DNA from: Lama guanicoe
Lineage: Eukaryota
DNA length: 64,000 bases
Direction of reading: 5' to 3'
NCBI GenBank assembly: GCA_013239625.1
Contig: MU053334.1
Location: forward strand, 507,190-571,189
The position numbers and the translations under genes were made by a program. The stretch's first letter is position 1, and every line of letters starts with the position of its first letter. Under the pieces are notes generated by a model. The model ran no database searches and was not told the DNA's origin. It saw only the letters and a list, made by a program, of their open reading frames with translations. This document shows positions 207 through 53,300 of the stretch, in pieces.

Positions 207-3200
207 GTCATCGTGGTCAAGGCCAGCGGGGAGGTGTTTGTGAACCAGATCTACACCCAGCTGCCCGTCTCCGCAGGTGAGCCCGCCTGCCCTGGTCACC
301 CCTCGAGGGTCTGGCCCCTCGCACCCCGCTGACACCTGGTCCTGTGTCCGCAGCCAACGTCACGCTCTTCAGACCCTCCACTTTCTTCATCATCGCCCAG
401 ACCCAGCTGGGCCTGCAGCTGGACATCCAGCTGGTGCCCCTCATGCAGGTGTACGTGAGGCTGGCGCCCGAGCTCCGGGGGCAGACCTGCGGTAAGAGGG
501 CCACTGCCCTGGCCACCAGAGCCCGCCCTCCGTGGCTGGGGCACACAGGGGCCTCATACTGCCTTCCCGTCCCCAGGCCTGTGTGGGAACTTCAACCAGA
601 ACCAGGCGGACGACTTCCGGACCATCAGCGGCGTGGTGGAGGGCACAGCCGCCGCCTTCGCCAACACCTGGAAGACCCAGGCCGCCTGCCGCAACGTCAA
701 GAACAGCTTCGAGGACCCCTGCTCCCTCAGCGTGGACAACGGTACGTGTGTCCGCAAGCCCCGCTGGCCCGCCTGGGCCAGAGGTCTGGGTGTGGGCTCT
801 GGCTGTCCACCCCAGCCCGAAGGGGGAGGTTAGGTGGTAAACCAGCAGGCCCGCCAACACGCAGCGACCTGGCCAGGTGGGTCTCGGAGGTGCAGGGTGC
901 TGGGGGGTCGGGGAGTGAGGCCCACCCCCCCCGTGCCTGCCACCAGGCTGGGGGCGCTCGGGAAGGAGCCTCAGAGCTGCTCACGCCTGGCCTAGTGCTT
1001 TAGATGGACCACCAGGGACGCGGGGTGAAAGGAAGTCTGCTCACCCGCAGGGAGCGCCCGTCTAACACGACTGTCCAGCCCCGCTGACCGTCCCTCCTCC
1101 TCTGTCCACAGAGAAATACGCTCAGCACTGGTGCTCGCAGCTGACCGACCCCCACGGCCCCTTCGCCCGGTGCCACGCCTCTGTGAACCCCAGCACTTAC
1201 TACTCGGTAATGCCACTCACCTGCCCCCTCCCTGGGCCATGCGGCCACCCTCAGGGTCCCCAGGGCTGTGGCAGCAGGGTCTGGGCTATTTGGTCTCTCT
1301 GGCTCTGTTCCCCCCACCCCCATTCACTCACTCACTCGCTGGCTCACGGCGAGGCTCCTGCAGCCGGCCTGAGGGTCCCCCAGAGAGCGCATAGCCCACC
1401 GGCCCGGGGCGTAAGTGAGAAACCAGTGGCAGCTGCGATGTTCTTGTGTCCGAGGCTGAACATAGAGGGCCGGACCGTTGGGTCACAGAGATGAGGGGCC
1501 CGGGTCCTCCCAGCACCTCTGCCCAGCAGGGGGCTTGGCTCCAAGACGCGCTGTGCGATTTCTGCAGAGGGACGTTCAGGGAGGGGTCCTGGAGAGGCAG
1601 GAGCTCCGGCAGATCAGGGGCTGCTCACCCTTGGGGGGCTGGGCTCCCTGACGTCCCGACCCCCTGACATCCCCGCAGAACTGCATGTTCGACACGTGCA
1701 ACTGTGAGAAGAGTGAGGACTGCATGTGCGCCGCCCTTTCCTCCTACGTGCGGGCCTGCGCCGCCAAGGGCGTGCTGCTGAGCGGCTGGCGGGACGGCGT
1801 GTGCAGTGAGTGCGCGGGGAGCGGGGCGGGCCCTGCAGTGGATGCTCCAGGGGCCCCTGTCCTCACAGTCAAGCTCACAGTCCACGGAGCGCCCAGGCCA
1901 GGGTCCCCAGGACTCCAGCTAGGACCATGGGCCTGGCGGGGACAGGGGAGCCAGGGTCCTGGGCGATGGCCGCTGGCTCTGTCCTGAGTGCTGCCTCTTC
2001 CTGGCATTCTGCAGCAAAGCCCACAGCCACCTGTCCCGAGTCGATGACCTACCACTACCACATCAGCACCTGCCAGCCCACCTGCCGGGCCCGGAGCGAC
2101 GAGGACGTCACCTGCAGCATCAGCTTCGTCCCTGTGGACGGCTGTACCTGCCCCCATGAAACCTTCCTGGACGACACGGGCAAGTGTGTGCCGGCCACCA
2201 GCTGTCCCTGCTACCACGGGGGCTCCATGGTTCCCAACGGGGAGTCGCTGCATGAGAGCGGGGTCATCTGGTAAGAGCCCCTGCCGAGCGGGTGGGGTGG
2301 GCCAGCTGGGGAGGCCCTCTGACCGCCCTCTCCTTGCAGCTCCTGCACCCAGGGCACGCTGGCCTGCATCGGAGGCTACTCCCCGGCTCCAGGTGAGCCC
2401 AGGGGTGCGGGGGAGGGGCTCTTGGTGACCTGCACGTGAAGCTATGGTCCGTGGGGGGTGTGGGGGCTTAGATGCCCCCAAGTCAGCGAGGCTGGTGGGC
2501 ATTGGCCCGCGTCTCTGCCGCGCCTGGTCTGTGCCCTCTGGGCTCCACAAGAGCGCGCACAGCACGGCAGCACACGCACACGCCAGCCCCAGGGCGGCAG
2601 CCACCACCGTCAGGAGACACGCCCCTCAGAGCCAGCCCGGTGGTCCCCTGATGCCCCCTCCCTCCCCAGCCTGTGCCTCCCCCATGATCTACTCGGACTG
2701 CCGCAACGCCACGCCCGGGGCCGCAGGGGCCGGCTGTCAGAAGAGCTGCCACACGCTGGACATGGACTGTGTAAGTGCCCCGATGACCCCACACCTGCTC
2801 GGGCCTCGTGGGCTCCTGTGAAGAGGCCCACCAGGTGGGCCCTAAGAGGACCCTGCCTGAAGCTGCCGGGCCCGCTGTCCCTGTGGCCCCCCCCCGCCCC
2901 CCGCCCCCCCCGGCCCACCGAGTGGAGTCCGCCCCGCACCCCAGTGCGTGCCCGGCTGCGTGTGTCCCAACGGGCTGGTGGCCGACGGCGAAGGCGGCTG
3001 CATCCCTGCGTCCGACTGCCCCTGCGTGCACAACGAAGCCAGCTACCAGGCCGGCCAGACCATCCGGGTGGGCTGCAACACCTGGTACGCCTGGGGGCTC
3101 AGAGCCCAACCTGGGGGGCAGGCCCCTGGAGCCTCAGGGAGGGAGGCTTTGGCCTGATGAGCGCCCCATCCCTCCCCAGCACCTGTAAGAGCAGGATGTG

Positions 3201-6200
3201 GCAGTGCACGGACGAGCCCTGCCTGGCCACCTGCGCCGTGTATGGGGACGGCCACTATCTCACCTTCGATGGGCAGCGCTACAGCTTCAGCGGGGACTGC
3301 GCATACACGCTGGCCCAGGTACGGTGCGCGGTCAGACCCTCCTAGACACCCCCCACCCTGCCCCTGGCCTCGCCCCTGGGACAGCCCTCCTCCCCCCACA
3401 CAGGACCACTGCGGCGGGAACGGCAGTGCTCAGGACGGCTTCCGTGTCGTCACTGAGAACATCCCCTGTGGCACTACGGGGACCACCTGCTCCAAGGCCA
3501 TCAAAGTCTTCCTGGGGGTGAGTGGGGCCCGGGGGGAGCCCCTGGGAAGGCTGTACTCCCAAGACAGGGGCCGTGGGGCCACGAGCCGACTCGGAAGGTG
3601 GCAGGGTCCTCGTCCAGAGCCTCACTGGCCCTGCCCCGCACAGAGCTACGAGCTGAAGCTGAGTGACGGCAAAGCGGAGGTGATCGAGAAGGACCCGGGG
3701 CAGCAGCCGCCCTTCTCCATCCGCCAGATGGGCATCTACCTGGTGGTGGACACGGAGGTCGGCCTGGTGCTGTTGTGGGACAAGAGGACCAGCATCTTCC
3801 TCATACTCAGCCCCGAGTTCAAGGTGGGCCCCCTGGGAGGCCGCCGCCCTCACCCCAGGCCCAGGGTCGGCTGGGAGCAGGGGTGCAGTGGGGGAGAGAC
3901 AGACGGAAAGACAGAGGCAGAGAGGGAGGCAGACAGACAGGGAGGGACAGAGCGGCAGCAGGAGCCGCCACACACTGCCGGCCCCCTGCTCTCACAGCTC
4001 TGGACACCGGAAGTCCAGTCAAGGTGTCCTGGGGCCGCATTCCCTCCCAAGGCTCTGGGGGAGGGTTCCTCCCGCCTCCTCCAGCTCCCGCGGCCCCGGT
4101 CACCCCGTCACCCCAACCTCTGCCTCCGGGTACTGTCTTCACTCTGTCTGTGTCCACATGTCCCCTGTCCTTTAGGGGTGCAGGCACCGGCCCAGCCGCC
4201 CCAGCGCAGGGCGCCCTCCTCTCAGCTCGCTCTCGCCCGCAGAGACGCTCTTCCCTCGCGGGGCCGCGCTCCTGGGTGTCGGGTCAGGACCCGAGCCCGG
4301 CTCGGGGGGACAGCTCGTAGCCCACTTTGCTGTCTCCCCCGTGCGCTCGCCTCCAGAGAGACTTGGGCGCCCGGTGGGGCTGCTCTGGGGGAGCTGTGGG
4401 CCCCGTGGATGGGGGTGAATGGGGTCACAGGGCCCTGAGCCTGAGCCCTCGTCTCTGCATCCACAGGGGAGGGTCTGCGGGCTGTGCGGGAACTTTGATG
4501 ACAACGCCCTCAATGACCTCACCACGCGGAGCCAGTCCGTGGTGGGCGACGTGCTGGAGTTTGGCAACAGCTGGAAGTTCTCCCCGTCCTGCCCGGACGC
4601 CCAGGACCCCGAGGACCCCTGCACGGCCAATCCGTACCGCAAGTCCTGGGCCCAGAAGCAGTGCAGCATCATCAGCGGGGACGCCTTCAGCGCCTGCCAT
4701 GCCCACGTACGTGGGGCGCTCCTCCGGGCCCCTGGGGAGGAAGGGACAGGGTGGGGGCCCAGCGGCTCCTCGCCACCCTCCGGGGCCACCTGTCTGGCCG
4801 GCCACGTGGGACCTGAGCTCCAGGGAAATTGGCCCAGGCCGACACCAAGCCACGCCAGTCCCCGAGAGCCATGGGGAGGGCGGGCCTGGCGCCTGAAGCC
4901 TCTTCTCCGCAGGTGGAGCCGGCCAGGTACTACGAGGCCTGCGTGAGCGACGCCTGCGCCTGTGACTCTGGGGGCGACTGCGAGTGCTTCTGCACGGCCG
5001 TGGCCGCCTACGCCCGGGCCTGCCACGAAGCGGGCGTGTGCGTGTCCTGGCGGACCCCGGACGTCTGCCGTGAGTGCCCACGGACGCGTCCATCAGGGCA
5101 GGACGGGGACACAGGCAGTGACGAGAACTGTGTTGAATGCGGGAGGGGTGGGAGGGCTTGAAGGGGATCCGCCGAGCTCCCCCAACCCTGCGGAGCCGGG
5201 CGGAGGGGGCGGAGCTGGGGGCAGCTCCGGCTGAAGTCCCCCGCCTCAAGGTGCCGCGTCCCTGAGAAGCCCGCTGACCACGCTCCTTGCCGCCCCCTGT
5301 GGCCCGCAGACCCCCGCCCCCGAGGCCACGTCCACAGGCACAGGGGAGGGATGCGTCTTTAGAACGGCTCGTGGTCAAGGATTGGGACACGGGGAGCCCC
5401 CAGGCTGTCCTCCAAGGGCGGCACTCGCGCCTGGCCCTGAGCCCCCTGCCCCCTCCCCGCAGCTCTCTTCTGCGACTACTACAACCCCCAGGGCCAGTGC
5501 GAGTGGCACTACCTTCCCTGCGGCGCCCCCTGCCTGAAGACCTGCCGGAACCCCAGCGGCCAGTGCCTGCACAGCGTGCACGGCCTGGAAGGTGGGCTGC
5601 TGCCCTGCTGGCTGGGAGGGGCGGCCCAGGGGCCCGGGGGGCGGGGTCTGTCCTGGGGGTCCTCTGACCCCCCGTGGTGCCTGTGCAGCTGTAGCCTTGA
5701 GCCCCCCGCAGCGTCGTGGGCGACGTCCAGGGCTGGGGACTGAGTGGAGGTGGGAGGTGGGGGATCAGGTGATGTGCAGTTCGTCTGGCTGGGACTCAGG
5801 CCTCTCTGGCCCACAGGCTGCTACCCCAAGTGCCCACCAGAGGCCCCCATCTTTGACGAGGACCAGATGCAGTGTGTGGCGTCCTGCCCGACCCCACCCC
5901 CACCGCCGCCCTGCCGCGTCCAGGGCAAGTCCTACCGGCCTGGCTCAGCCGTGCCCTCGGATGAGAACTGCCACTCCTGGTGAGTCCTTGGCTGGAGTTG
6001 AGAGGAGCCTGGAGCACGTGGGGGGTTCTCCCGGCCCCCTGCCATTGGGGAAAGGCCCCACCAGCCACCTCCCAGGAGAGCCTCCTCCCTTGAGGGCCGG
6101 GAGGAGCCCTCCAGCCTGGGTTTGCTGTGGACCCCACAGTGGGGTCCACCGAGGAGCTTCCTTGCTGCAGGATGAGGCTGGGGGACCTGTGGGGTGAAGG

Positions 6201-9200
6201 AAGGGGGCAGAGGGGAAGCTGAAACGTGACACCCACCGAGGATCCCCAAGACAGACACCCTTGAGAGGCAGTGGCCGTCAGAAGGCCCGAGGGGCTCTCT
6301 GGCCATGCTGGAACCGGCCTCCTCTGGTCACTGACTGGAGGGTCCCCCTGACGGGGTGTGACCCCACTGGCCTGCCCGCCCCGGCACGGGGCTTGCCCTA
6401 CGCCCCAGACTCGCCTGCTTTCTTCTGTTGCCAGCATTTGCACTGAGAGCGGCGTGCGCTGCACCTATGACTCGGACGGTGAGCAGGGGTGGCACTCCTC
6501 GTCTGGGGTCCCGGGTCCCCGCCTGCCCCCCAGCCCCTGACCGCCAGCTCCCTGCTCCCCTCAGCCTGTGTCTGCACCTACGGCGGCCAGCACTTCCGTC
6601 CCGGGGACGTCATCTACCACACGGCAGACGGCACAGGGGGCTGCATCTCCGCCCGCTGCGGGGCCAACGGCACCATCGAGAGGAGGATCTACGCCTGCAG
6701 CTCTACCTCCCCCACCCCGCAAACCACCTTCTCCTTCTCTACGCCGCTCGGTAAGGTGGACACGCTGGGTACCAGGCAGGGCTGCCCCTCGCCTGGGAGT
6801 GAGGAAGGGGCCGGGACGGCCAGCGGGCGTGTCCCTGGGCCAGCCTCCCCGCAGCCGGGAAGGGCCAGCCTCCTCCAGGCTCCCTGGCAGGACCCACGCC
6901 CTCGGTCGTGCTCTCAGGGCTGAGGCTCCCAGCACGGGGCAGGGGCTGCGAGCAGAGGCTCCCCAGGCTGGCCCCCAGGGCGAGGACCACCTGGGAGCCC
7001 CTGCCCAGGTGCGCTGCCATCCAGTCTTCTTCCGTCACGCACGTGCCAGGCGCCTCGAGGCTTTACCCTCTTCCGGGGCATCTTGGGGCCGTACCAGAGC
7101 TTCCCCAAACGTCGGAGAGCCCCTGTCCCTTTGGCTTTTGGGGCCACACATGCAGATTCTGGGAACAGGCTTCCCTTAGGCGAGCCCAGCTCGCCTCCTG
7201 GCTCAGCTGCGGTGAGCGCCACAGCTGCACGGCCCAGGGCCCCAGGGCCTCCCCCAGCTCCCATCGTGGGCGGAGACACACAGGCAGACAGACGTGGTGA
7301 GGCCTCCAGGCAGCTGACGGAAGAGGCAGGGCGGGGTGGCCTCAAGGACTCGGGGAGCCGTGTCCTGATGCCTGGCCTTTCCGCTGTCTCTTGCCCTCAG
7401 TCCTGAGCCCGACGCCTCCACCTGGCATGAGCCCCAGCCCTGACGAGAGCACGGCACACACCCCGAGCAGCACCCCATCCACCGCCCCGGGCACGTCCCC
7501 GAGAACGCCGCCTTCAGTAACCACCCCCTTGCCCACCCTGGGCTGTGAGCAGCAGTGCCAGTGGTCGCAGTGGCTGGACGTCAGCCGTCCAGGACGGGGC
7601 ACAGACAGCGGGGACTTCGACACACTGGAGAACCTCCGTGCCCACGGGTACCAGGTTTGCCGAGCACCGAGGCAGGTGGAGTGCCGGGCCGAGGGCGCCG
7701 CTGGGGTGCCACTCCAAGTCCTGGGGCAGCACGTGCAGTGCAGCCCACAGGTGGGGCTGACTTGCTACAACAGGGACCAGGCTTCTGGGCTCTGTGAAAA
7801 CTACCAGATCAGGATCCTGTGCTGCTCCCCCGAGGACTGCACAATCAGCAGCACCACCTCTCCTGTCACCTCCAGGACTAGCACCACACCTGCCCCAGGT
7901 TCCACCACACCTGCCCCAGGTTCCACCACACCTGCCCCAGGTTCCACCACACCTGCCCCAGGTACCACCACACCTGCCCCAGGTTCCACCACACCTGCCC
8001 CAGGTACCACCACACCTGCCCCAGGTCCCAATACACCTGTCCCAGGTACCACTACAACTGTAAAAAGAATCCTCTCGACTTCCAGCCCAATGTTAGTTTC
8101 AACAGTTTCAACCACAACCTCTGTGCCGACCACAGCCCCGGGGACCTCCAGTCCCCCTGGCACATCTACGCTCAGCGACAACCTCTGTCTGCGAGAATTA
8201 TGCACTTGGACTGAGTGGATTGATGGCAGCTATCCTGGATCAGAGAGAAACAGTGGAGATTTTGACACTTTTCAGAATCTGAGATCCAAAGGATATAAAT
8301 TCTGTGCAAATCCCAGGAACGTGGAGTGCAGGGCAGAGCGCTTCCCGAACACCCCGCTGCAGGACCTGGGGCAGGACCTGATCTGTGACAAGACGGTGGG
8401 GCTGATATGCCGCAACGAGGACCAGCTGCCCCCAATTTGCTACAACTATGAAATCCGGATCCTATGCTGTGAGGTGGTAAATGTGTGCACGACAAACACC
8501 TCCCCCTCCACCGTGCCCGGGGCCACGCCCTGGACCACACGCGAAACCAGCGCTGCCCGGACCACCGTGCTGCCCTCGCCTTCCACCCTACACAGCAGCA
8601 CCAGCTCCCCACCCGTGTCCCCAGCAAGCAGGGTCATCCCCAGCACACATGAGCCCTCCCCACCTGGGACCAGCACAACCTCTGCTCCGACGACCAGCAC
8701 GACCTCCGCGCGGACCACCGGCCCCCCCTCGGCTCCGACGACCAGCACGACCTCCGAGCGGACCACCGGCCCCCCCTCCGCTCCGACGACCAGCACGACC
8801 TCCGCGCGGACCACCGGCCCCCCCTCGGCTCCGACGACCAGCACGACCTCCGAGCGGACCACCGGCCCCCCCTCCGCTCCGACGACCAGCACGACCTCCG
8901 CGCGGACCACCGGCCCCCCCTCGGCTCCGACGACCAGCACGACCTCCGAGCGGACCACCGGCCCCCCCTCCGCTCCGACGACCAGCACGACCTCCGCGCG
9001 GACCACCGGCCCCCCCTCGGCTCCGACGACCAGCACGACCTCCGAGCGGACCACCGGCCCCCCCTCCGCTCCGACGACCAGCACGACCTCCGCGCGGACC
9101 ACCGGCCCCCCCTCGGCTCCGACGACCAGCACGACCTCCGAGCGGACCACCGGCCCCCCCTCCGCTCCGACGACCAGCACGACCTCCGCGCGGACCACCG

Positions 9201-12200
9201 GCCCCCCCTCGGCTCCGACGACCAGCACGACCTCCGAGCGGACCACCGGCCCCCCCTCCGCTCCGACGACCAGCACGACCTCCGCGCGGACCACCGGCCC
9301 CCCCTCGGCTCCGACGACCAGCACGACCTCCGAGCGGACCACCGGCCCCCCCTCCGCTCCGACGACCAGCACGACCTCCGCGCGGACCACCGGCCCCCCC
9401 TCGGCTCCGACGACCAGCACGACCTCCGAGCGGACCACCGGCCCCCCCTCCGCTCCGACGACCAGCACGACCTCCGCGCGGACCACCGGCCCCCCCTCGG
9501 CTCCGACGACCAGCACGACCTCCGAGCGGACCACCGGCCCCCCCTCCGCTCCGACGACCAGCACGACCTCCGCGCGGACCACCGGCCCCCCCTCGGCTCC
9601 GACGACCAGCACGACCTCCGAGCGGACCACCGGCCCCCCCTCCGCTCCGACGACCAGCACGACCTCCGCGCGGACCACCGGCCCCCCCTCGGCTCCGACG
9701 ACCAGCACGACCTCCGAGCGGACCACCGGCCCCCCCTCCGCTCCGACGACCAGCACGACCTCCGCGCGGACCACCGGCCCCCCCTCGGCTCCGACGACCA
9801 GCACGACCTCCGAGCGGACCACCGGCCCCCCCTCCGCTCCGACGACCAGCACGACCTCCGCGCGGACCACCGGCCCCCCCTCGGCTCCGACGACCAGCAC
9901 GACCTCCGAGCGGACCACCGGCCCCCCCTCCGCTCCGACGACCAGCACGACCTCCGCGCGGACCACCGGCCCCCCCTCGGCTCCGACGACCAGCACGACC
10001 TCCGAGCGGACCACCGGCCCCCCCTCCGCTCCGACGACCAGCACGACCTCCGCGCGGACCACCGGCCCCCCCTCGGCTCCGACGACCAGCACGACCTCCG
10101 AGCGGACCACCGGCCCCCCCTCCGCTCCGACGACCAGCACGACCTCCGCGCGGACCACCGGCCCCCCCTCGGCTCCGACGACCAGCACGACCTCCGAGCG
10201 GACCACCGGCCCCCCCTCCGCTCCGACGACCAGCACGACCTCTGCACGGACCACCGGCCCTCCCTCCGCTCCGACGACCAGCACGACCCCTGTCCCTACA
10301 CCTGGGACTCCCTACTCCACATCCGGGGCCACCACCTGCCTGCCACAGTGCGCGTGGACCAAGTGGTTCGATGTGGACGTCCCATCCCCTGGGCCCGATG
10401 GAGGAGACTCTGAAACCTACAGCAACATCACCAGAAGAGGAGAGAAGATCTGCCACCGACCCGAGCACATCGCCCAACTGGAGTGCCGAGCGGAGAGCCA
10501 CCCGGAAGTCAGCATCGCCGCGCTGGGCCAGGTGGTGCAGTGCAACCCCAAAGTGGGCCTGGTGTGCCGGAACCGGGACCAGAGCAGCCCGTTCACGACG
10601 TGCTTCAACTACCAGATCCGAGTGCTGTGCTGTGAGCCCCCGAAAGGCTGCCCTGTCCCTTCTGTGACCCCCTTTGTGACTTTATCCAAGACTCCTCTGT
10701 CCCCAGAGTCCACCACCACGGTGTCCTCAGTGACACCGCCCAGCTCCACGGAGCCCTCCACCACAACGTGCTACTGCAGCGTGTCCGGCAATTTCTACCC
10801 TGCGGGTACGTGGCTCCTGCCCACGGTGTCTGGTGTGTGCTGACCCTGCTGGCTGCTGTCCTGTTCTCAGAGCTACTGTGTGAGGGGAGGGGGGGAGGGG
10901 TCCCCTGTTCTGTGACCGGGCCTGGGGCTGTGGACAGGGTCAGAAGTAGCTGTCACTGAGGATATGCCCTTCGTATCTGAGTAAAGGCCACCTGCCGGGC
11001 CAGCCACCGAGCTGACCACCAGCCCGAGCCCCTCCTGCTGGGTCCCCTGCTCTGCCTGGACCACCTGTCCCTTTGTCCTGCAGGGTCCATCATTTACCAG
11101 CAGACCGACCTCTCCGGCCACTGCTATTACGCCGTGTGCAGTCTGGACTGCCATGTGGTCAGGCGGACTGACCACACCTGTCCCACCAGCACTCCATCTC
11201 TTGCCCCGACCACCTCCCCACCCCGGTCCTCCCCGTCTACGTCGGTGCCTCCGGAGGGATGCCCAAATGCAGTGCCCCCAAGGACGGTAATCCCACCTTT
11301 CCTGCCGCGCCTGGGCCCAGGGGCGCATGCGGGGACCCCCCGCGTCTTCCCCATTAGGCCGTGGCACCACGTGTGCGTGGAGGTCGGTGCCTCCCGGACC
11401 GAGTCAGGCTGCCCATGGGGAGAGGCCGTTTCTGGTCGCCCAGAACTTCTGGAATGGGATGCCAGGGCGTGGGGTCCAGGGTTCAGACTCTGCTTTCTGA
11501 CAAGGGGGCCAGAGCAGGCAGGGGGTGCTCTGGGCAGGGTCGACAGCCAAGGAGCGGAGTCCGGGTAGTCTGCACGTGGGGAGCAGGTTGCAACTGGGCA
11601 GAGTGGGGAGGGGGCAACCTGCACCCACTCAGAGACCCTCCCTCCAGTGGTGACGCGGAGGGAACAGTCGGTGGGGGGTGCCGGTCCCAGCCCCGGTGTC
11701 CCTGCTGGCCTCTCTCTCCGGGGAGGCCCAGGCCAGCTCTGAGCCCTGAGGGTCGGCGCCGGGTCGGGAGCGAGGCCCTGCAGCTGTCCTTCCTCCGCAG
11801 GAAGGCGAGACCTGGGCCATGCCCAACTGCTCTCAGGCCACCTGCAAGGGCAATGGGGTCATCACTGTGAGGCCGCGCCAGTGCCCAGCGGTGAAGAAGC
11901 TGACCTGCGCCAACGGCTACCCCCCCGTGAGCGTGGCTGACGACGAGGGCTGCTGCTTAAGCCACTACGAGTGCCAATGTGAGCCCGGCGGGCGGGCGGG
12001 CAGAGAAGGGGGCTCCGCTAAGGCGGGACAGGATCTCGGGCCCGGGAAGGACTCCCCAGCATCGGGGCAGAGGTCACGGTGCCCGGCCTCCTCCCGGGGT
12101 GCCCAGCGGAACCCTGCCCGAGCCCAGAGCCCCCGGGGCCGCGCGGGGTGGGTGAAGAGGGAGGGAGTCTGGTCCCGCCCCTCGGGCCGCGCTTGCACCT

Positions 12201-41300: not shown

Positions 41301-44300
41301 AGCGCCAGCTCACCCTGCCTGCCCACACTCGGCCCTCCCTGCCTGGGTTGGGGGCTGGCCGACCCCAGTACATAGGTGGGCTCTGCCTTGTTCAGAAATG
41401 TGCGGACAACACCCTCACGGTGCTGGCTGAGCTGCGGAGATGTGGCCTGACCGACAATGAGAACTGCCTCAAAACGGTGACGCTGAGCATGCACGGAGGG
41501 GACACGGTGAGTGTCCCAGGCTGGGGGGACCGGGGGGGAGACAGGCCCCAGGGGCAGCAGCCATCCCTGGGGTGGGGGAGGCTGGCCCCTGCCCAGTGCT
41601 CCCTCAGTGGGCCGACAGGCTCTTGCCCACGCTGACCACAGCCCCACCTCCTCCCACTAGGCCATCCGGATCCAGGCCAACGGTGCTGTGTTCATGAACT
41701 CCATCTACACCCAGCTGCCTGTGTCAGCGGGTACGTGGCTCCTGCCGCTTGGGGCCAGCCGGGTCCCTCGCTAGTTCCTTGCTAGCTCAGAAGGTTCCAG
41801 AACATCCACTCCCAGGGCTGGTTTCTCACCTGCAAGGTGGGGGTGTCAGGGGCCTCCCCTGGGGCCCTGTGGGGACCCTGTATGGAGCACGCTTGGTGCC
41901 CAGCCTCTCGGGGGCGTCAGTGGTCGTGGCCCCAGGAGCACATGCGAGCTTCCGCATGGCTCCCAGGCCCCGGAGGGGTGGCGGGGGTCCACCGGGCGCC
42001 CTTCAGCAGTGGCCATCCCAGGAGCCCGCTGCTAAGGCCAGGCGGTCAGCGTGGCCGGGCTCTGACTGCGCCCTCCCCCACCCCACCCGCAGCCAACATT
42101 ACCATCTTCAGACCCTCGTCCTTCTTCATCCTGGTGCAGACGGGCCTCGGGCTGCAGGCGCAGGTGCAGCTGGTGCCCCTCATGCAGGTGTTCCTCAGGC
42201 TGGACCCCTCCTACCACGGCCAGATGTGCGGTGAGGCTCAGTGGAGGGTGTGGGAGGAGCAGTGGGGCGGGGCAGGGGGTGGGCAATCGGGCAGGAGAAG
42301 GGGACCCCCGCCCCACACCAGCCGCCACGGAGGGGGCGGTGGGCTGGGAGGATGGAGAGCAGGCTGCCCTCGCTCAGCGGGCTTCGCAGGGCGCTCCCTC
42401 CCCATGCCCCAGGGCTCAGCTGCAGGCACTTCAGCAACTGGTCCTGAGACGGGGCTCGCCCACCTTGCGGTGGTGCCTGTAGGACCTGCGGGGCCGGGGC
42501 ACTCAGGCTGGGCTGGGTGGGCCACTGATGCCCACCCCCCACCTCCCACCCCCAGGCCTGTGTGGGAACTTCAACCAGAACCAGGCGGACGACTTCCGGA
42601 CCATCAGCGGCGTGGTGGAGGGCACAGCCGCCGCCTTCGCCAACACCTGGAAGACCCAGGCCGCCTGCCGCAACGTCAAGAACAGCTTCGAGGACCCCTG
42701 CTCCCTCAGCGTGGACAACGGTACCCTGCCCTGGGGGCCCTTGGGTCTCCATGGGGCCAGGCCTGGGGGTTGCCCTTCTGTGCAGGAGGCTCTGCGCAGC
42801 TGGGGCCGGGGGTGAGCAGGAAGGGCGCAGGGGGCCCGAGGGGCTGTGAGCCCGTCTCGAGGAAGGTGTCCTGCTGCCGGCCAGCCCCAAGCTCCAGTTC
42901 AGTTTCCCGGGCGGAGGGGCCCCCGCAGACCTGTGTGGGCCAAGCAGAGGCTAGGTGGGTGGGCAGGCGCAGAGGGGGACATGTGGGAAGGAAGCCAGTG
43001 ACCCTGAGCTGTGCCTGGTGACAGCCACCCCCCAACCCCCGCAGAGAACTATGCCCGGCACTGGTGCTCCCTGCTGACCAGCCCTGCCGGGGCCTTCTCA
43101 CCCTGCCACGCCATCGTCAACCCTGCGCCCTTCCACTCGGTGAGAGCCCTGGCCCGCCCCCAGAGTGGGGTGGGGTGCTGGGGGCAGCATCTGCCCCTGG
43201 AGCTGCCCCCCAGGCCCCCCTCAGGCTCCTGCTCTCAGGCACCGCCCACACCTCCGTGGCCAGTGGGTCCCACTCTAGGCCTGCTCTGGGGTCTTCGCAT
43301 GGTCCCTGCTGGTGTGTTCCTTGCCTGGGTGACCTGTAACGAAGGACCACAGACTGGGGCTGAAAGCTGGAGCCATCTACCCTGCCCCCTACCCCAGTCC
43401 TGGAGACGAGATTTAAAATCTAGGTCCTGGCAGGATGTCCTAGAGGATCCTTCCTGTCTCTCCAGCTTCTGGGGCCGCGAGGCTGCCTCTCGCCAGCCTC
43501 TGCCGCGTCTTCACGTGGCCTCCGGGTTTGCCTGGGTCCCAATTCTTTCTCACAGGGACACCAGGCCCACCCTAGTGACCCCTCTTGACTTCATCACCCC
43601 TGCAAATGCCCCATTTCCAGCAGGGCCACCGCCACAGGCCCCGGGGTCACGATATGGACACGTCTTTTGGGGTGACAGAACGTCACCCGCTGCAGTTGGC
43701 TAACAGGTCACTTTTCTGGGAGCCAGAGCCCTAAAGCGCACCCGACCCCAGCCCCCAGGGGCTGGGTCCACAGGTGGAGACGCAGGCCCACCTCAGCCCA
43801 TTTTGAGGGTGACACACCCTCCTGTCGGCCCCTCCCCACCCTGGCCACGCCCCACATGCAGCACAGCTCGTGACGGGCCTAGGATTCAAGCTGGACCCCG
43901 TCCTGGTCCTGCAGAGACCCCTCTCCTTGGCCCCATCCTCAGCCCCTCCCGACCCCTCAGAGCAGTGTGTCCCTCCCGTGGCTCCACGTCAAGCTCGGGG
44001 CTGCCCTACGGGAGGCCCCGCCCACCTGCTTGCTGGCCCAGGCCAGGGCACCCAGAAGGATGGACGGGGAGAGAAAGGCCGCTGGGGGGCTGGGCTCCCT
44101 GACGTCCCGACCCCCTGACATCCCCGCAGAACTGCATGTTCGATACGTGCAACTGTGAGAAGAGTGAGGACTGCATGTGCGCTGCTCTGTCCTCCTACGT
44201 GCGGGCCTGCGCCGCCAAGGGCGTGCTGCTGAGCGGCTGGCGGGACGGCGCGTGCAGTAAGTGTGCCCTGAGTGTGCCCAGGCGGGGGCGGGGGTTCTGG

Positions 44301-47300: not shown

Positions 47301-50300
47301 CAGAACTATGAGCTGGTCCTCCACGAGGGCACCTACAAGGTGCTGCAGAGGGCGCCAGGTGGGCACCAGCCCTTCAAGATCCGTTACATGGGCCTCTACC
47401 TGGCCATCGAGACCCGCAGCGGCATGATCCTGTCCTGGGACCGGAAGACAAGCGTGTTCATCAGGCTGAACCAGGATTACAAGGTGGGGGGCGGACAGAG
47501 CTCTCACCCCTAGACCTAGGCCTTCGGGGTCCCCCTGGCAGTTGGGTGTCTGCTGAGGGCTGGGGGAGGCCATGCACAGGGCAGGTCCCCAAAGGGGCGT
47601 GTGAAGACCAGACCTACCGGTGGGCGCGAAGCACTCTTGGCTGCCTGGTCTCTGCACTCAGCCGCTCCACGCCAGCTGGGCTGAGGTCTCCAGGGGGGCA
47701 GGTGACTGTGCCTCTGGTGGCCACCCACCTGCCGGCATACCTTCCTGTCCACCTGCCCCCTGCCTGTCCCCCTGCTGACCTGTCTCCCTTCCTGTGCACC
47801 TGCCCACCTCCCTTCCTGCCCATTGCAGGACTGCCTGTGCACCTCATCTTCCTGATAGTTCACTGGGGGAACCAGGTACCCTGCAGTCACCCCTTCTGGG
47901 CCAGGCTCTGTGCTCGGGCCACCTGTATAGCCCCCATGCCCCCATCTCTGCGTCCACAGGGGAGGGTCTGCGGGCTGTGCGGGAACTTTGATGACAACGC
48001 CCTCAACGACCTCACCACGCGGAGCCAGTCCGTGGTGGGCGACGTGCTGGAGTTTGGCAACAGCTGGAAGTTCTCCCCGTCCTGCCCGGACGCCCAGGAC
48101 CCCGAGGACCCCTGCACGGCCAATCCGTACCGCAAGTCCTGGGCCCAGAAGCAGTGCAGCATCATCAGCGGGGACGCCTTCAGCGCCTGCCGTTCTCAGG
48201 TGAAGCAGGAGGGGGAGGGGCCTGGCTGGGGAATGGCGGGGGCTGCCCCCTCCTCTCCTGGCAGGACCTGGGTTTGGCCCTGTTTTTACCCTAACCGTTA
48301 CACATGATCAGCACCTCCCACTAGGCAGGCGCCCATATCCCCAGTCCTGCAGAGAGCCCCCCACTGCTTTCCCTGACCACACTAAGCCATTTCCCCAGAA
48401 ACGGGCTGTGAGCCACACAGTGTCACCAGTGTCACCCCCTCGCCTCCCTTCTTCCCACCTCCCTGATTTACCAGCCCCCAGCACTAATGGAAGCCTCAGG
48501 GGGCCCTCCAGCCCAGCCGGGCCTCATGGGAGCAGAAGACAGTGATGTCCTTGGACACTCTTCCCCAAAGCCCTTCCTGTTACCTAACAAGGACTGCAGT
48601 GCCCACCTGTGAGCAGGGTCTCATGACCTGGGACCCGCATAGGGATGAGGAGGGCGGCTTGGCAGGAAGTCTGCAGCTGACGCTGGTGGTCACGTGAGGC
48701 CCCAGGTGTCCTGCCCTTTGGCTCAGAAAGTCCTTTGTGAACCTGACATAGTGGTCCCTTCCCCAGATGGTGTCATCCATGGTGGCAAACTCAAGACATG
48801 GGTGCCCTGGGCTCTGTCGCCTGGGAGGGACGGGGCGTCCCCTCACCCTGAGGAGACAGCACCTCATTTGTCAGGACAGAGTCACAACAGGGTCACGGGG
48901 AGGGCTGGCTTGCAGTTGCATGAGGCGTCAAACGGGTGAGGGACCAGGGGCAGGTGCCTAGGTGGGCACGTCTCCAGTGGCAGGTGAGGTCGAAGTGCAA
49001 ACAGGGAGCCGGCTGCCCCTGACACGGGGGGTGGCCCTTCTCACCAACCCCCCCCCCACCTGCCACCCCCAGGTCGACTCCACCAGGTACTATGAGGCCT
49101 GTGTGAGCGACGCCTGCGCCTGTGACTCTGGGGGCGACTGTGAGTGCTTCTGCACGGCTGTGGCCGCCTACGCCCGGGCCTGCCACGAAGCGGGCGTGTG
49201 CGTGTCCTGGCGGACCCCGGACATCTGCCGTGAGTCAGGCTCTGTCCGTGGTGGCGGGAGGAGGTGCAGCCACACCTGCTCTGGGGCCTGATGGGCACGT
49301 ATGCACGCACACGGACATCAGACACACATGTGATACACACGTGTGCACGTGTCCCCGTGCGTAGAAATCAGACAGGTCACCCCCAGACGGGATGGCTTAG
49401 TTGGGGACAGTTCTGAGTGCAGAGCTGAGAAATGAAACTGGAATTCGGGGGGTGGGCTCTGGAGCCCACTCGACTCTGGGATGAACCCAGGGATGAGACC
49501 CGGGCAGGCGCCCACGAGCCTCTCCTCCCCACCCAGCCTTGTTCTGTGACTACTACAACCCGCACGGGGAGTGTGAGTGGCACTACGAGCCTTGTGGGGC
49601 CCCCTGCCTGAGGACCTGCCGGAACCCCAGTGGGCAGTGCTCCATGGACCTGCCGGGCCTGGAAGGTGAGGCGCAGGCTGCTCCGGGGAAGCCACACCTT
49701 GCCACCCCAGGACAGAGTACAGGCAAGGGGGAGAGGGGCTCCTGCCTCCCGCATACCCACCTGGAGACCCGCAGGCAGAGGCGGGCTGCCGGCGGGGCAG
49801 CACTGGACACCTGGCCTGAGAAGGCGTCTTCTCCTCGCCCTGTGCCCGCACCAGGCTGCTACCCGAAGTGCCCGCCCAGCAAGCCATTCTTCAACGAGGA
49901 CGAGATGAAGTGCGTGGCCCAGTGCGCCTGCTACGACGAGCATGGAAACCACTACGATGTGGGCATGAGGGTCCCCACTGCGGAGAACTACCAGAGCTGG
50001 TGAGGAAGCTGGGGTGGGGGCGTGGTCTGGGTGGTGTGGGGTCTGGGTGGTGGTGGGGTCTGGGNNNNNNNNNNNNNNNNNNNNNNNNNNNNNNNNNNNN
50101 NNNNNNNNNNNNNNNNNNNNNNNNNNNNNNNNNNNNNNNTCTGGGCGGGGTGGGGCGGGGCCGGGAAGGCAGGGCTACTGGCCTGGTCCCCAATGGCCTT
50201 TTCTTCTCCCAGTGTCTGCACCTTCCGAGGCCTCCAGTGCACACACAGCCTGGCGGGTAAGGAGGGCCCTGTTTGTTTGGGGGCTGGGAGCTGGGGGCTC

Positions 50301-53300
50301 CGAGTGAACCCTGAACCTGTCCATCTCCAGACTGCAAGTGCACCTACCAGAACACGACCTACAACTACGGGGACGTCATCTACAACACGACTGACGGGCT
50401 GGGCGCCTGCTTGATTGCTGTCTGTGGAGACAATGGGACGATCACCCGGGAAGCCGTGAGGTGTCCTGGAACCCCGTCCACGACACCCTTCACCTAGACC
50501 AGCATCACCTCCACCCCCACCCCCATCACNNNNNNNNNNNNNNNNNNNNNNNNNNNNNNNNNNNNNNNNNNNNNNNNNNNNNNNNNNNNNNNNNNNNNNN
50601 NNNNNNNNNNNNNNNNNNNNNNNNNNNNNNNNNNNNNNNNNNNNNNNNNNNNNNNNNNNNNNNNNNNNNNNNNNNNNNNNNNNNNNNNNNNNNNNNNNNN
50701 NNNNNNNNNNNNNNNNNNNNNNNNNNNNNNNNNNNNNNNNNNNNNNNNNNNNNNNNNNNNNNNNNNNNNNNNNNNNNNNNNNNNNNNNNNNNNNNNNNNN
50801 NNNNNNNNNNNNNNNNNNNNNNNNNNNNNNNNNNNNNNNNNNNNNNNNNNNNNNNNNNNNNNNNNNNNNNNNNNNNNNNNNNNNNNNNNNNNNNNNNNNN
50901 NNNNNNNNNNNNNNNNNNNNNNNNNNNNNNNNNNNNNNNNNNNNNNNNNNNNNNNNNNNNNNNNNNNNNNNNNNNNNNNNNNNNNNNNNNNNNNNNNNNN
51001 NNNNNNNNNNNNNNNNNNNNNNNNNNNNNNNNNNNNNNNNNNNNNNNNNNNNNNNNNNNNNNNNNNNNNNNNNNNNNNNNNNNNNNNNNNNNNNNNNNNN
51101 NNNNNNNNNNNNNNNNNNNNNNNNNNNNNNNNNNNNNNNNNNNNNNNNNNNNNNNNNNNNNNNNNNNNNNNNNNNNNNNNNNNNNNNNNNNNNNNNNNNN
51201 NNNNNNNNNNNNNNNNNNNNNNNNNNNNNNNNNNNNNNNNNNNNNNNNNNNNNNNNNNNNNNNNNNNCTCCACCCCCATCAGCTTCACCTCCACACACCC
51301 CCCCACCTCTACCACCACCACCACCATCACTGCCACCCCTACCCCTAGCCACAGTCAGGGCACAACCAGCTGTCAACCCAAGTGTCAGTGGACAGAATGG
51401 TTCGATGTGGACTTCCCAACCTCGGGGATCCCAGGTGGAGACATGGAGACCTATGAAAATATTAGGGCTGCGGGCGGCAAGATGTGCAGGGAGCCAAAGA
51501 AGATCGAGTGCCGGGCGGAGAGATTCCCCGAGGTGAGCCTGGACCAGCTCGGGCAGGTGGTAACCTGCAGCCTGCAGGCCGGGCTAGTCTGCTGGAATGA
51601 CGACCAGACGGCACCGTTCAACACTTGCTTCAACTACAACATCCGCCTGCTCTGCTGTGACGACATCCGGCACTGCCCCAGCACGGCCACCCCTGGCCTC
51701 AGCTCAGCTCCCAGCCCCACCCACAGCAGCACTGCCACCTGGGGCTCCAGACTGACACTGTCACCACCATCAACCTCAGCCACCACCGAGACCCAGACCA
51801 CCTCCCTCAGGACCTCACTCACGACCACCTGGCTGGCTTCAACCCATGCACCCTCCACAGCCCAAAGTCACACCAGCTCGGGCTCCTCCATGGCCACTTC
51901 CACGGCCACAGTGACCGAGACCTCCTCCCTCCTGACCCCCAGCCCCACGCCGACCCCCGGGTCCACAGCCTGTCAGACGGACTGCACCTGGACGGAGTGG
52001 CTGGACCACAGCTACCCGATGCCAGGAGCCTCCGGCGGGGACTTCGAGACCTATGCTAACATCCGGGCGGCCGGTGGGGCCGTCTGCGAGCAGCCTGTGG
52101 CCATCGAGTGTCGGGCCGAGATGCAGCCGGACGTCAGCGTGGAGCAGCTGGGCCAGGTGGTGCAGTGCACACTGCAAGAGGGCCTGGTGTGCCGGAACCA
52201 GGACCAGAGCGGCCAGTTCAAGATGTGCTTCAACTACCAGATCCGTGTGCGCTGTTGTGACTACAGCCATTGTACCGGCCCTACTGTCACCAAGGCCACC
52301 ACGCTGGCCTCCACAGCCTCCACCCCCAGCAGCAGCATAAGCAAGGGGTCATCGACGGCGACTCCACCCTGGACCACGGCCACCTCCCAGACGCACGTCT
52401 CCTCTCCTGCGACCACCGAGAGGGTCTCTACCACCACCACTGAGTCAAGACCTTCCTCCACGGGCACCACCACCACAGTGACCGAGACCTCCTCCCTCCT
52501 GACCCCCAGCCCCACGCCGACCCCCGGGTCCACAGCCTGTCAGACGGACTGCACCTGGACGGAGTGGCTGGACCACAGCTACCCGATGCCAGGAGCCTCC
52601 GGCGGGGACTTCGAGACCTATGCTAACATCCGGGCGGCCGGTGGGGCCGTCTGCGAGCAGCCTGTGGCCATCGAGTGTCGGGCCGAGATGCAGCCGGACG
52701 TCAGCGTGGAGCAGCTGGGCCAGGTGGTGCAGTGCACACTGCAAGAGGGCCTGGTGTGCCGGAACCAGGACCAGAGCGGCCAGTTCAAGATGTGCTTCAA
52801 CTACCAGATCCGTGTGCGCTGTTGTGACTACAGCCATTGTACCGGCCCTACTGTCACCAAGGCCACCACGCTGGCCTCCACAGCCTCCGCCCCCAGCAGC
52901 AGCATAAGCAAGGGGTCATCGACGGCGACTCCACCCTGGACCACGGCCACCTCCCAGACGCACGTCTCCTCTCCTGCGACCACCGAGAGGGTCTCTACCA
53001 CCACCACTGAGTCAAGACCTTCCTCCACGGGGACCACCGAGGGGGTCTTCACCCCCACCACTGAGACCCATCCCTCTTCCACGGGGACCACCCAGAGGGT
53101 CTCCACTCCCACCACTGAGTCCCGTCTCTCCTCCACGGGGACCACTCAGAGGGTCTCCACCCCCACCACTGAGTCCCGTCTCTCCTCCACGGGGACTACC
53201 GAGGGGGTCTCCACCCCCACCACTGAGACCCATCCCTCCTCCACGGTGACCACCGAGAGGGTCTCCACCCCTACCACTGAGTCAAGTCTCTCCTCCACGG

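Follow-up and report, generated by a model that had tools for sequence, protein, structure and literature searches.

Probable recurrent gene conversion between MUC5AC and MUC5B in exons of the D2 and D3 assemblies of therian mammals

What keeps a few exons of two anciently separated mucin genes almost identical, even at synonymous sites, while their neighbors have diverged? We addressed this question in a 64,000-nt stretch of Lama guanicoe DNA (the window), which contains the 3' part of camelid MUC5AC together with MUC5B in tandem, head-to-tail on the + strand and separated by ~42-43.5 kb. The original prediction for this locus held that gene conversion homogenizes the D3 exons of the two genes and that this could allow heteropolymers to form. 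Exon borders were defined using a spliced model guided by the MUC5AC protein of pig and the MUC5B protein of camel, and the borders given originally agree with it; counted from the MUC5B protein matches, the exon numbers are one lower than the 15, 17, 25, and 26 used there. In a protein tree of columns outside the near-identical exons, the MUC5AC of the window is sister to Camelus MUC5AC (starred support of 99) within the MUC5AC clade and its MUC5B is sister to Camelus MUC5B (starred support of 100) within the MUC5B clade, and the closest solved structures are human Mucin-5B and Mucin-5AC. Judged by these sequence relationships, the two genes are orthologous to MUC5AC and MUC5B.

Four near-identical exon pairs in a diverged background

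Of 16 homologous exon pairs in the D2-D3 region, four are 94-100% identical with a dS of 0.00-0.19, as opposed to a dS of 0.35-1.15 for the other 12. The first pair (MUC5AC 577-741 and MUC5B 42556-42720; all features described here are on the + strand) codes for the end of VWD2 including an 11-residue motif, is identical at 165/165 positions (dS 0.000), and lies within a tract in which MUC5AC 565-745 is 98.9% identical to MUC5B 42544-42724 by self-BLAST. The second pair (1679-1805 and 44130-44256) codes for part of C8-2, including a stretch that begins with a 17-residue motif, and has five differences (dS 0.164); its tract (1632-1812, 96.7% identical to 44083-44263) takes in the end of the upstream intron, where 1632-1678 is identical between the paralogs at 47/47 nt while the introns are otherwise unalignable. 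The third pair (4467-4706 and 47960-48199; dS 0.040) codes for the end of VWD3 with its CGLCG motif, the VWD3-C8-3 linker, and the start of C8-3; near-identity extends from ~4460 to 4698 (4445-4698 with 98.4% identity by self-BLAST), and the camel MUC5B protein P0002 matches the MUC5B exon at 97.6%. The fourth pair (4913-5069 and 49073-49229; whole-exon dS 0.189), with a tract at 4923-5075, codes for the rest of C8-3, including a 13-residue motif and the equivalent of MUC5AC Cys1132. CGLCG and the 13-residue motif were both found, as anticipated, in the translation of these D3 exons. In D2, homogenization extends over the CGLCG end of VWD2 and part of C8-2; in D3, it extends over the CGLCG end of VWD3 and the whole of C8-3. 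The original description as D3 exons holds for two tracts (end of VWD3, linker, and C8-3) but two of the four lie in D2; similarly, the description as exon-restricted is roughly true, three of the four tracts stopping no more than ~12 nt from exon borders, except that the tract at 1632-1812 includes the 47 intron bases.

The differences between the D3 exons are concentrated at one point. Over the first 232 nt of the third pair there is a single difference (4514, aat/aac), followed by four in the last 8 nt (4699, 4701, 4703, and 4706) that change HAH in MUC5AC to RSQ in MUC5B; in the fourth pair, the first 10 nt (MUC5B 49073-49082) contain five differences, giving VEPA and VDST, respectively, and the following 147 nt contain another five (4933, 4942, 4981, 4999, and 5063). 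The single difference at 4514, the HAH/RSQ change, and the later five differences are as originally reported for the two exons. Together, the 3' end of the third exon (8 nt) and the 5' end of the fourth (10 nt) form a paralog-specific island that spans an intron (4699-4922 in MUC5AC; 48192-48199 and 49073-49082 in MUC5B), reads HAH|VEPA in MUC5AC and RSQ|VDST in MUC5B, and contains 9/15 of the differences of both exons. The introns inside it, of 206 nt in MUC5AC and 873 nt in MUC5B, are unalignable.

The flanking exons provide the background for these values. The preceding VWD3 exon pair (3644-3823 and 47304-47483), which serves as an unconverted control, is strongly diverged as originally described (63.3% identity, dS 0.63, dN 0.47), and the pair coding for the start of TIL3 (5463-5591 and 49537-49665) is 77.5% identical with a dS of 0.80. 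Equivalents of Phe1086 and Cys1132 (numbered against marmoset MUC5AC; residues taken from PMC11933400) are located in the converted D3 stretch, while TIL3 with the equivalent of Cys1174, the second inter-chain cysteine, is outside the tracts; counting from Cys1132, we predict that the Cys1174 equivalent is located in exon 5463-5591. A self-BLAST of the window detected no high-identity segment in the C-terminal parts of the genes, the best 3' matches being 79-83%.

When the 498 differences over 2259 aligned coding nt were permuted in 10,000 rounds (using our own script, which follows the logic of Sawyer's test and is not GENECONV), the longest identical run was 57 nt, compared with observed runs of 184, 173, 63, and 61 nt. 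Four-fold degenerate sites differ at 5/101 positions in the four exons and at 68/156 in the other twelve (Fisher p=7e-13). The pattern of identity is far beyond chance, and four exon-sized segments are homogenized at the DNA level in this camelid. GC-biased conversion was also considered and set aside: GC3 is 0.94 and 0.91 in the converted and 0.89 and 0.90 in the other exons, a slight rise that is uninformative.

Grouping by lineage across mammals

For the comparison across species, we generated protein trees of 31 MUC5 sequences (MUC2 being left out) separately from 530 non-converted and 222 converted columns, so that the cross-species evidence is at the protein level. In the non-converted columns, a single branch with starred support of 100 splits MUC5AC from MUC5B. 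In the converted columns, the gene label changes 13 times in the tree and grouping follows the species or the lineage: starred sister pairs of paralogs occur in the species of the window (97/87), blue whale, horse, bear, squirrel, rhinolophid bats, and phocid seals, and starred clades mix both genes in camelids (100/99) and primates. An AU test on the converted columns rejected a MUC5B clade (lnL difference 267, p=0.00058). These trees give what the original prediction had proposed as support: on these exons, lineage determines how the paralogs group, and outside them, gene does. Moreover, residue states common to both paralogs and private to one lineage number 45 in the 222 converted columns and 9 in 533 others (odds ratio 12, p=2e-16), and lineage-specific residues common to both paralogs were found on these exons in at least eight therian lineages. 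Together, the lineage grouping and the 45 versus 9 shared-private states support the claim of gene conversion that recurs across mammals. The signal is strongest and most general on the VWD3/C8-3 exon, in which the solved human chains of MUC5AC (9gvj) and MUC5B (8oes) both read CPDALAPKDPC...SILHGPTFAAC, as stated originally.

Sauropsids gave no conversion signal in these 222 columns: their paralogs continue to group by gene and differ at 12-27% of the positions. In a tree of 39 rows, the backbone was unresolved among mammalian MUC5AC, mammalian MUC5B, two sauropsid clades, and amphibians. Of note, a marsupial is present in both the MUC5AC and the MUC5B clade; our claim is limited to a duplication that took place before marsupials and placentals separated.

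We considered whether one paralog's exons might have been filled or polished with reads of the other during assembly. The assembly does have N gaps in MUC5B (50065-50139 and 50530-51267) and collapsed repeats near the locus, and the tract length is similar to a read or insert length. However, each tract has 1-5 positions at which the two copies are different, and the copies occupy different introns; the MUC5AC stretch 3600-5300 with its junctions is supported by 0.81-0.95 of sampled words in 20 sequencing runs from 9 studies with 4 organism codes (read support for the MUC5AC copy); the independent models of Camelus dromedarius MUC5AC (P0181) and MUC5B (P0002) have the same camelid-specific residues in both genes; and the pattern recurs in the solved human proteins and in seven further non-camelid mammalian lineages, whose assemblies are independent. 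We therefore regard an assembly artefact as highly improbable.

Still harder to credit is extreme constraint at the nucleotide level, e.g., from splicing enhancers, mRNA structure, or codon usage, in which no exchange takes place. The converted exons are indeed the most conserved at the protein level, with a cross-lineage paralog identity of 0.8-0.9, and their GC3 is very high (0.91-0.94). Nevertheless, both paralogs carry many lineage-specific amino-acid changes that are different between lineages, and because these changes are common to both paralogs, the sequence does change, and does so in step. The inclusion of 47 intron bases in the identity and the divergence of the sauropsid paralogs in the same columns also speak against constraint, and this reading is already contradicted by the AU test and the shared-private residue states.

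Conversion and the question of co-assembly

The explanation that we consider highly probable is recurrent interlocus (non-allelic) gene conversion between MUC5AC and MUC5B in therian mammals, in short tracts of ~150-250 bp. In the lineage of the window, at least one event took place before the split from Camelus and at least one after it. The resulting mosaic could be self-sustaining: pairing would need sufficient similarity, and exons that have once been converted would thus stay convertible while introns and the remaining exons would have drifted beyond the similarity needed for pairing. Exchange may be tolerated by purifying selection because the CGLCG end of VWD and C8 would serve the same purpose in MUC5AC as in MUC5B. 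The explanation requires no special function of the homogenization.

Three observations count against this explanation. The edges of three of the four tracts, near exon borders, are tidier than conversion alone predicts and may reflect selection or a limit of homology. Conserved exons that are free of signal, such as the start of TIL3 and the D1 CGLCG region, are left unaccounted for by the self-sustaining model, as is the persistence of the HAH|VEPA and RSQ|VDST island. The island motif tracks the gene in most mammals examined, the exception being pinnipeds, in which both genes have HAH VDPA.

We also asked whether conversion is real but the homogenized state is retained by selection because both mucins must stay compatible in assembly, which we think improbable. 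Compatibility, as in the original prediction, could involve disulfide links between the D3 assemblies of the two mucins or, alternatively, a common D1-D2-templated filament where one cell makes both. The location of the tracts accords with this idea: they take in C8-3 in its entirety, with equivalents of both the inter-chain Cys1132 and the interface residue Phe1086, as well as D2 modules, the most general and strongest signal is on the VWD3/C8-3 exon, and the tracts end near exon borders. Also, the signal is present in therians and absent in sauropsids, and, according to PMC11933400 (citing Hoang et al. 2022), goblet cells co-express MUC5AC and MUC5B in lung disease. On the other hand, of the covalent interface, the half in TIL3 is unconverted, the self-BLAST gave no high-identity segment in the C-terminal parts, and the residues that co-vary (DAQDPEDP of the VWD3-C8-3 linker is an example) are variable ones. 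Furthermore, PMC11933400 describes the covalent interface as highly conserved even between MUC5AC and MUC2, so that ordinary purifying selection suffices to explain its conservation. A more specific form, in which D2/D3 homogenization in therians is favored because MUC5AC and MUC5B co-assemble (through a D1-D2-templated filament or C8-3 to C8-3 disulfides) and the island marks a part that is kept gene-specific, is likewise improbable. In the airways, each of the two mucins is described as forming its own homotypic polymers. The present results support neither a role of conversion in keeping the interfaces alike nor one in permitting heteropolymers, and the idea of heteropolymers is unnecessary for explaining the homogenization.

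The modules coded by the converted D3 exons, namely the end of VWD3, the connecting loop, and C8-3 with Cys1132, are visible in the MUC5AC D3 covalent dimer (PMC11933400, available in part; 8r1u, 8qsp, and 9gvj) and in the N-terminal structures of MUC5B (8oes and 8oer). The accessible part of PMC11933400 describes homotypic MUC5AC assemblies and is without mention of sequence exchange or mixed dimers, and each of the solved MUC5AC and MUC5B chains has a single mucin name.

Related systems and consequences

Short-tract gene conversion has a parallel within the D-assembly superfamily to which MUC5 belongs, in which VWF is converted by its partial pseudogene VWFP1. That exchange is between chromosomes, has a pseudogene donor, involves other exons, and is known as an origin of disease alleles, not of concerted evolution between two functional genes.

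Human segmental duplications (PMC3790853 and PMC4467073) and modeled tandem paralogs (bioRxiv 10.1101/2025.10.29.685298), as far as the available parts of these sources describe them, likewise have short tracts between nearby paralogs in the same orientation, a mosaic of homogenized and diverged sequence, and paralogs that group by species inside the tracts. The MUC5 genes differ from these systems in that the paralogs are old, with a marsupial in both clades, and the background is near synonymous saturation; also, only four exon-sized islands can still be converted, and it is these that recur among therian lineages. The mucin-like spiggin genes of stickleback (PMC2180178, available in part) are similarly a family of the gel-forming-mucin type with GENECONV tracts of similar length (152 and 138 bp); however, the spiggin copies are young lineage-specific duplicates converted within one genome, whereas exchange in MUC5 is recurrent and between two functionally distinct, anciently separated genes.

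In the literature searched, the scope of which left out subscription papers such as early genomic descriptions of MUC5AC/MUC5B, we found no report of conversion or concerted evolution between MUC5AC and MUC5B. The term gene conversion in PMC13345508 refers to MUC20 and heterotypic in PMC6851316 to the N- and C-termini of MUC5B; the words conversion, paralog, and concerted are absent from PMC11344006, and PMC6195635 contains nothing relevant to MUC5AC-MUC5B conversion. The available part of Lang et al. 2016 (PMC4948705) has a tree with all mammalian Muc5 together and all bird and reptile Muc5 in another group, and conversion is unmentioned in that part.

These exons mislead D-domain trees and Muc5 orthology calls. 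Because they are nearly identical in two disease-relevant genes, they cause trouble for short-read mapping, variant calling, and association signals, and the peptides shared between them cannot distinguish the two mucins in mass spectrometry. Conversion can also carry variants from one gene to the other, including C8-3 variants next to the polymerizing cysteine, and the exons offer a concrete, testable handle on D3 linkage of both airway mucins. Finally, the difference between therians and sauropsids and the persistence of the gene-specific island, both small and as yet unexplained, merit comparative study.

Near-identical tracts between two diverged genes

On the plus strand, protein matches identify two genes: MUC5AC, of which the window has the 3' portion (mid-D2, with a first matched exon at 207, to ~18,300, repeats and C-terminal domains included), and MUC5B, which is complete apart from gaps and extends from a first exon at 35,380 to ~60,917. 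The database proteins nearest to them come from Camelus dromedarius, i.e. MUC5B (P0002) and MUC5AC (P0181), with 98% and 97% identity, respectively, on non-converted columns (the protein alignment columns outside the four exons described below); the source is thus a camelid near the dromedary but distinct from it. Self-comparison of the window, which has a G+C content of 64%, revealed four MUC5AC-MUC5B segments at 96.7-98.9% identity, all plus/plus, i.e. tract 1 (565-745/42544-42724), tract 2 (1632-1812/44083-44263), tract 3 (4445-4698/47938-48191), and tract 4 (4923-5075/49083-49235); the remaining matches between the genes are at 72-83%. Spliced models of 16 homologous exon pairs, guided by splice sites and by two proteins (pig MUC5AC and camel MUC5B), are open over 762 and 753 codons and give exactly the exon borders of the original prediction. 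For the four exon pairs in the tracts (577-741/42556-42720, 1679-1805/44130-44256, 4467-4706/47960-48199, and 4913-5069/49073-49229), per-exon dS (Nei-Gojobori) is 0.000, 0.164, 0.040, and 0.189 (20 differences in 687 nt) versus 0.35-1.15 (478 differences in 1572 nt) for the other twelve, confirming the predicted near-identity, synonymous sites included, of the 4467-4706 and 4913-5069 pairs, which lie in D3. Four-fold sites differ at 5/101 positions in the four exons and 68/156 in the others (p=7e-13), and the two longest stretches without a difference measure 184 and 173 nt, compared to a permuted maximum of 57 nt (498 differences, 10,000 permutations). Because a 44% difference at four-fold sites, as in the other twelve exons, is near the composition limit at GC3 ~0.9, we infer that the exon background represents old, nearly saturated divergence.

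Similarity had been proposed to be restricted to exons. This roughly holds for tracts 1, 3, and 4, which end only a few bases from exon borders, but not to tract 2, which starts 47 nt within the upstream intron; these 47 nt are the same in both genes, and outside them the introns are unalignable. DNA exchange, rather than coding constraint, is the probable cause of the identity. The unequal numbers of differences in tracts 1-4 (0/165, 5/127, 1/232, and 5/147) suggest events of different ages. Near-identical exons could also be an assembly artefact; however, several points argue against this: the two copies are non-identical and lie in different introns, MUC5AC 3600-5300 was found in 20 runs from 9 studies at 0.81-0.95 of sampled words, and independent Camelus models as well as seven further non-camelid mammalian lineages have the same pattern.

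Grouping by lineage in the four exons

From 240 database proteins, 36 were picked by name to pair the two genes within a species or between close relatives and were mapped onto the window MUC5AC exons. Of the 38 rows, seven were left out of the trees, i.e. four duplicate MUC5AC isoforms (second entries of Sciurus, Rattus, Macaca, and Gopherus), two partnerless MUC5AC rows (Sciurus and Rattus), and a marmoset MUC5B that was truncated. Across the 530 non-converted columns retained, a single branch (support 100, starred) separates the 17 MUC5AC from the 14 MUC5B rows. The tree of the 222 converted columns requires 13 changes of gene label, and 0/200 bootstrap trees have a single change. Here, MUC5AC and MUC5B form starred sister pairs in the window species, blue whale, horse, bear, ground squirrel, Rhinolophus, and phocid seals, and gene-mixed starred clades in camelids and also in primates. 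A tree constrained to MUC5B monophyly on these columns is worse by 267 log-likelihood units (AU p=0.00058). The anticipated recurrence, with grouping by species or lineage in the four exons and by gene elsewhere, is supported. Because the window paralogs are sisters (97/87, starred) within the camelid clade (100/99, starred), some conversion predates the split from Camelus and some follows it.

Over eight lineages, residue states common to both paralogs of one lineage and absent from all others number 45 in converted versus 9 in other columns (odds ratio 12, p=2e-16). The solved human proteins agree with the expectation that the human paralogs are alike here but differ from camelids: both have DFATRSRS, DALAPKDP, NPFRKSW, and SILHGPTFAAC at positions at which the two camelid genes carry other letters. 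On the same 222 columns, the Muc5 paralogs of sauropsids (turtles, lizards, and birds) still group by gene, and one paralog clade covers all three groups (support 95, starred); paralog identity is 73-88% in sauropsids and 87-99% in mammalian pairs. Therefore, the mammalian species grouping is no by-product of a short, conserved alignment, and the conversion process looks therian. We note that sauropsid Muc5 forms two clades whose relation to mammalian MUC5AC/MUC5B was left without resolution in a 39-row tree, and that database names (5AC, 5B, MUC5A) are out of step with these clades (e.g. proteins P0020/P0057, P0042/P0102, and P0045/P0069).

In a sliding comparison of within- and between-lineage paralog identity over the N-terminal 1323 residues in seven lineages, the VWD3/C8-3 exon gave the strongest and most general signal (+0.12 to +0.16), the C8-2 exon, first D1 exon, and second C8-3 exon weaker ones, and the VWD2-end exon little signal outside camelids. 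Within-lineage identity is weakly raised (+0.04 to +0.08) in the first D1 exon and TIL1 (71-110 and 321-350 of human MUC5B, P0018); these may be further converted segments, and in MUC5AC they fall outside the window.

Altogether, low dS, long identical runs, identical intron nucleotides, and lineage grouping support the gene conversion originally predicted, and short-tract interlocus gene conversion between the tandem paralogs is the best reading. Interlocus gene conversion is a well-known kind of process; the literature searched, subscription papers aside, contained no report of MUC5AC-MUC5B conversion on these modules across therians.

Modules encoded by the tracts and a gene-specific island

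The modules encoded by tracts 1 and 2 are the end of VWD2 with its CGLCG and a portion of C8-2; tracts 3 and 4 code for the end of VWD3, again with CGLCG, the loop that leads to C8-3, and C8-3 in full. Passages of PMC11933400 describe a covalent MUC5AC D3 dimer that is linked via Cys1132 (C8-3) and Cys1174 (TIL3) and has Phe1086 at its C8-3 contact, and a covalent interface highly conserved between MUC5AC and MUC2. Residue 1086 of marmoset MUC5AC is the last of NPF, and residue 1132 is the cysteine that opens CECFC; by this numbering, the equivalents of Phe1086 and Cys1132 would lie within tracts 3 and 4, and that of Cys1174 in the next, unconverted exon (5463-5591; dS 0.80). If the interface is conserved between MUC5AC and MUC2, its conservation needs no conversion. 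Conversion may have been kept going wherever paralog similarity was still high enough, and exchange would be tolerated because the converted modules are functionally interchangeable. That homogenization serves co-assembly of MUC5AC and MUC5B is a candidate role that we consider improbable.

Between tracts 3 and 4, a gene-specific island flanks the intron on both sides (HAH then VEPA in MUC5AC versus RSQ then VDST in MUC5B) and takes 9/15 differences of exons 4467-4706 and 4913-5069. Its motif goes with the gene in most mammals examined, except pinnipeds, in which both genes have HAH VDPA (MUC5B P0126 and P0128 from seal and walrus; MUC5AC P0151 and P0176 from seal and sea lion). So the island can be overrun: pinniped conversion crossed what most other examined mammals keep distinct. 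In sauropsids, amphibians, and fish, the motif takes intermediate forms, e.g. HSQ VEPN and HSQ VDPS.

Assembly and repeats of the central regions

Central MUC5B contains N gaps (50065-50139 and 50530-51267) and a 572-nt direct duplication (51900-52471/52467-53038, 99.3% identical). With MUC5B spanning only ~25.5 kb here, the assembly probably lacks part of the large central exon of this gene. In MUC5AC, a long C-rich run (2876-2942) lies upstream of exon 2928-3084, where the best splice model reads ...DMDCVIRPAPQCVPGC and the pig equivalent ...DMDCYSSQCVPGC, reflecting either an indel, a sequence error, or another acceptor site. The central region 8679-10292, presumably the MUC5AC PTS repeat and possibly collapsed in the assembly, is a near-perfect tandem array with 99.3-99.7% identity at offsets that are multiples of 96 nt and ~95.6% between copies at the remaining 48-nt offsets; a second, smaller array lies at 7872-8060.
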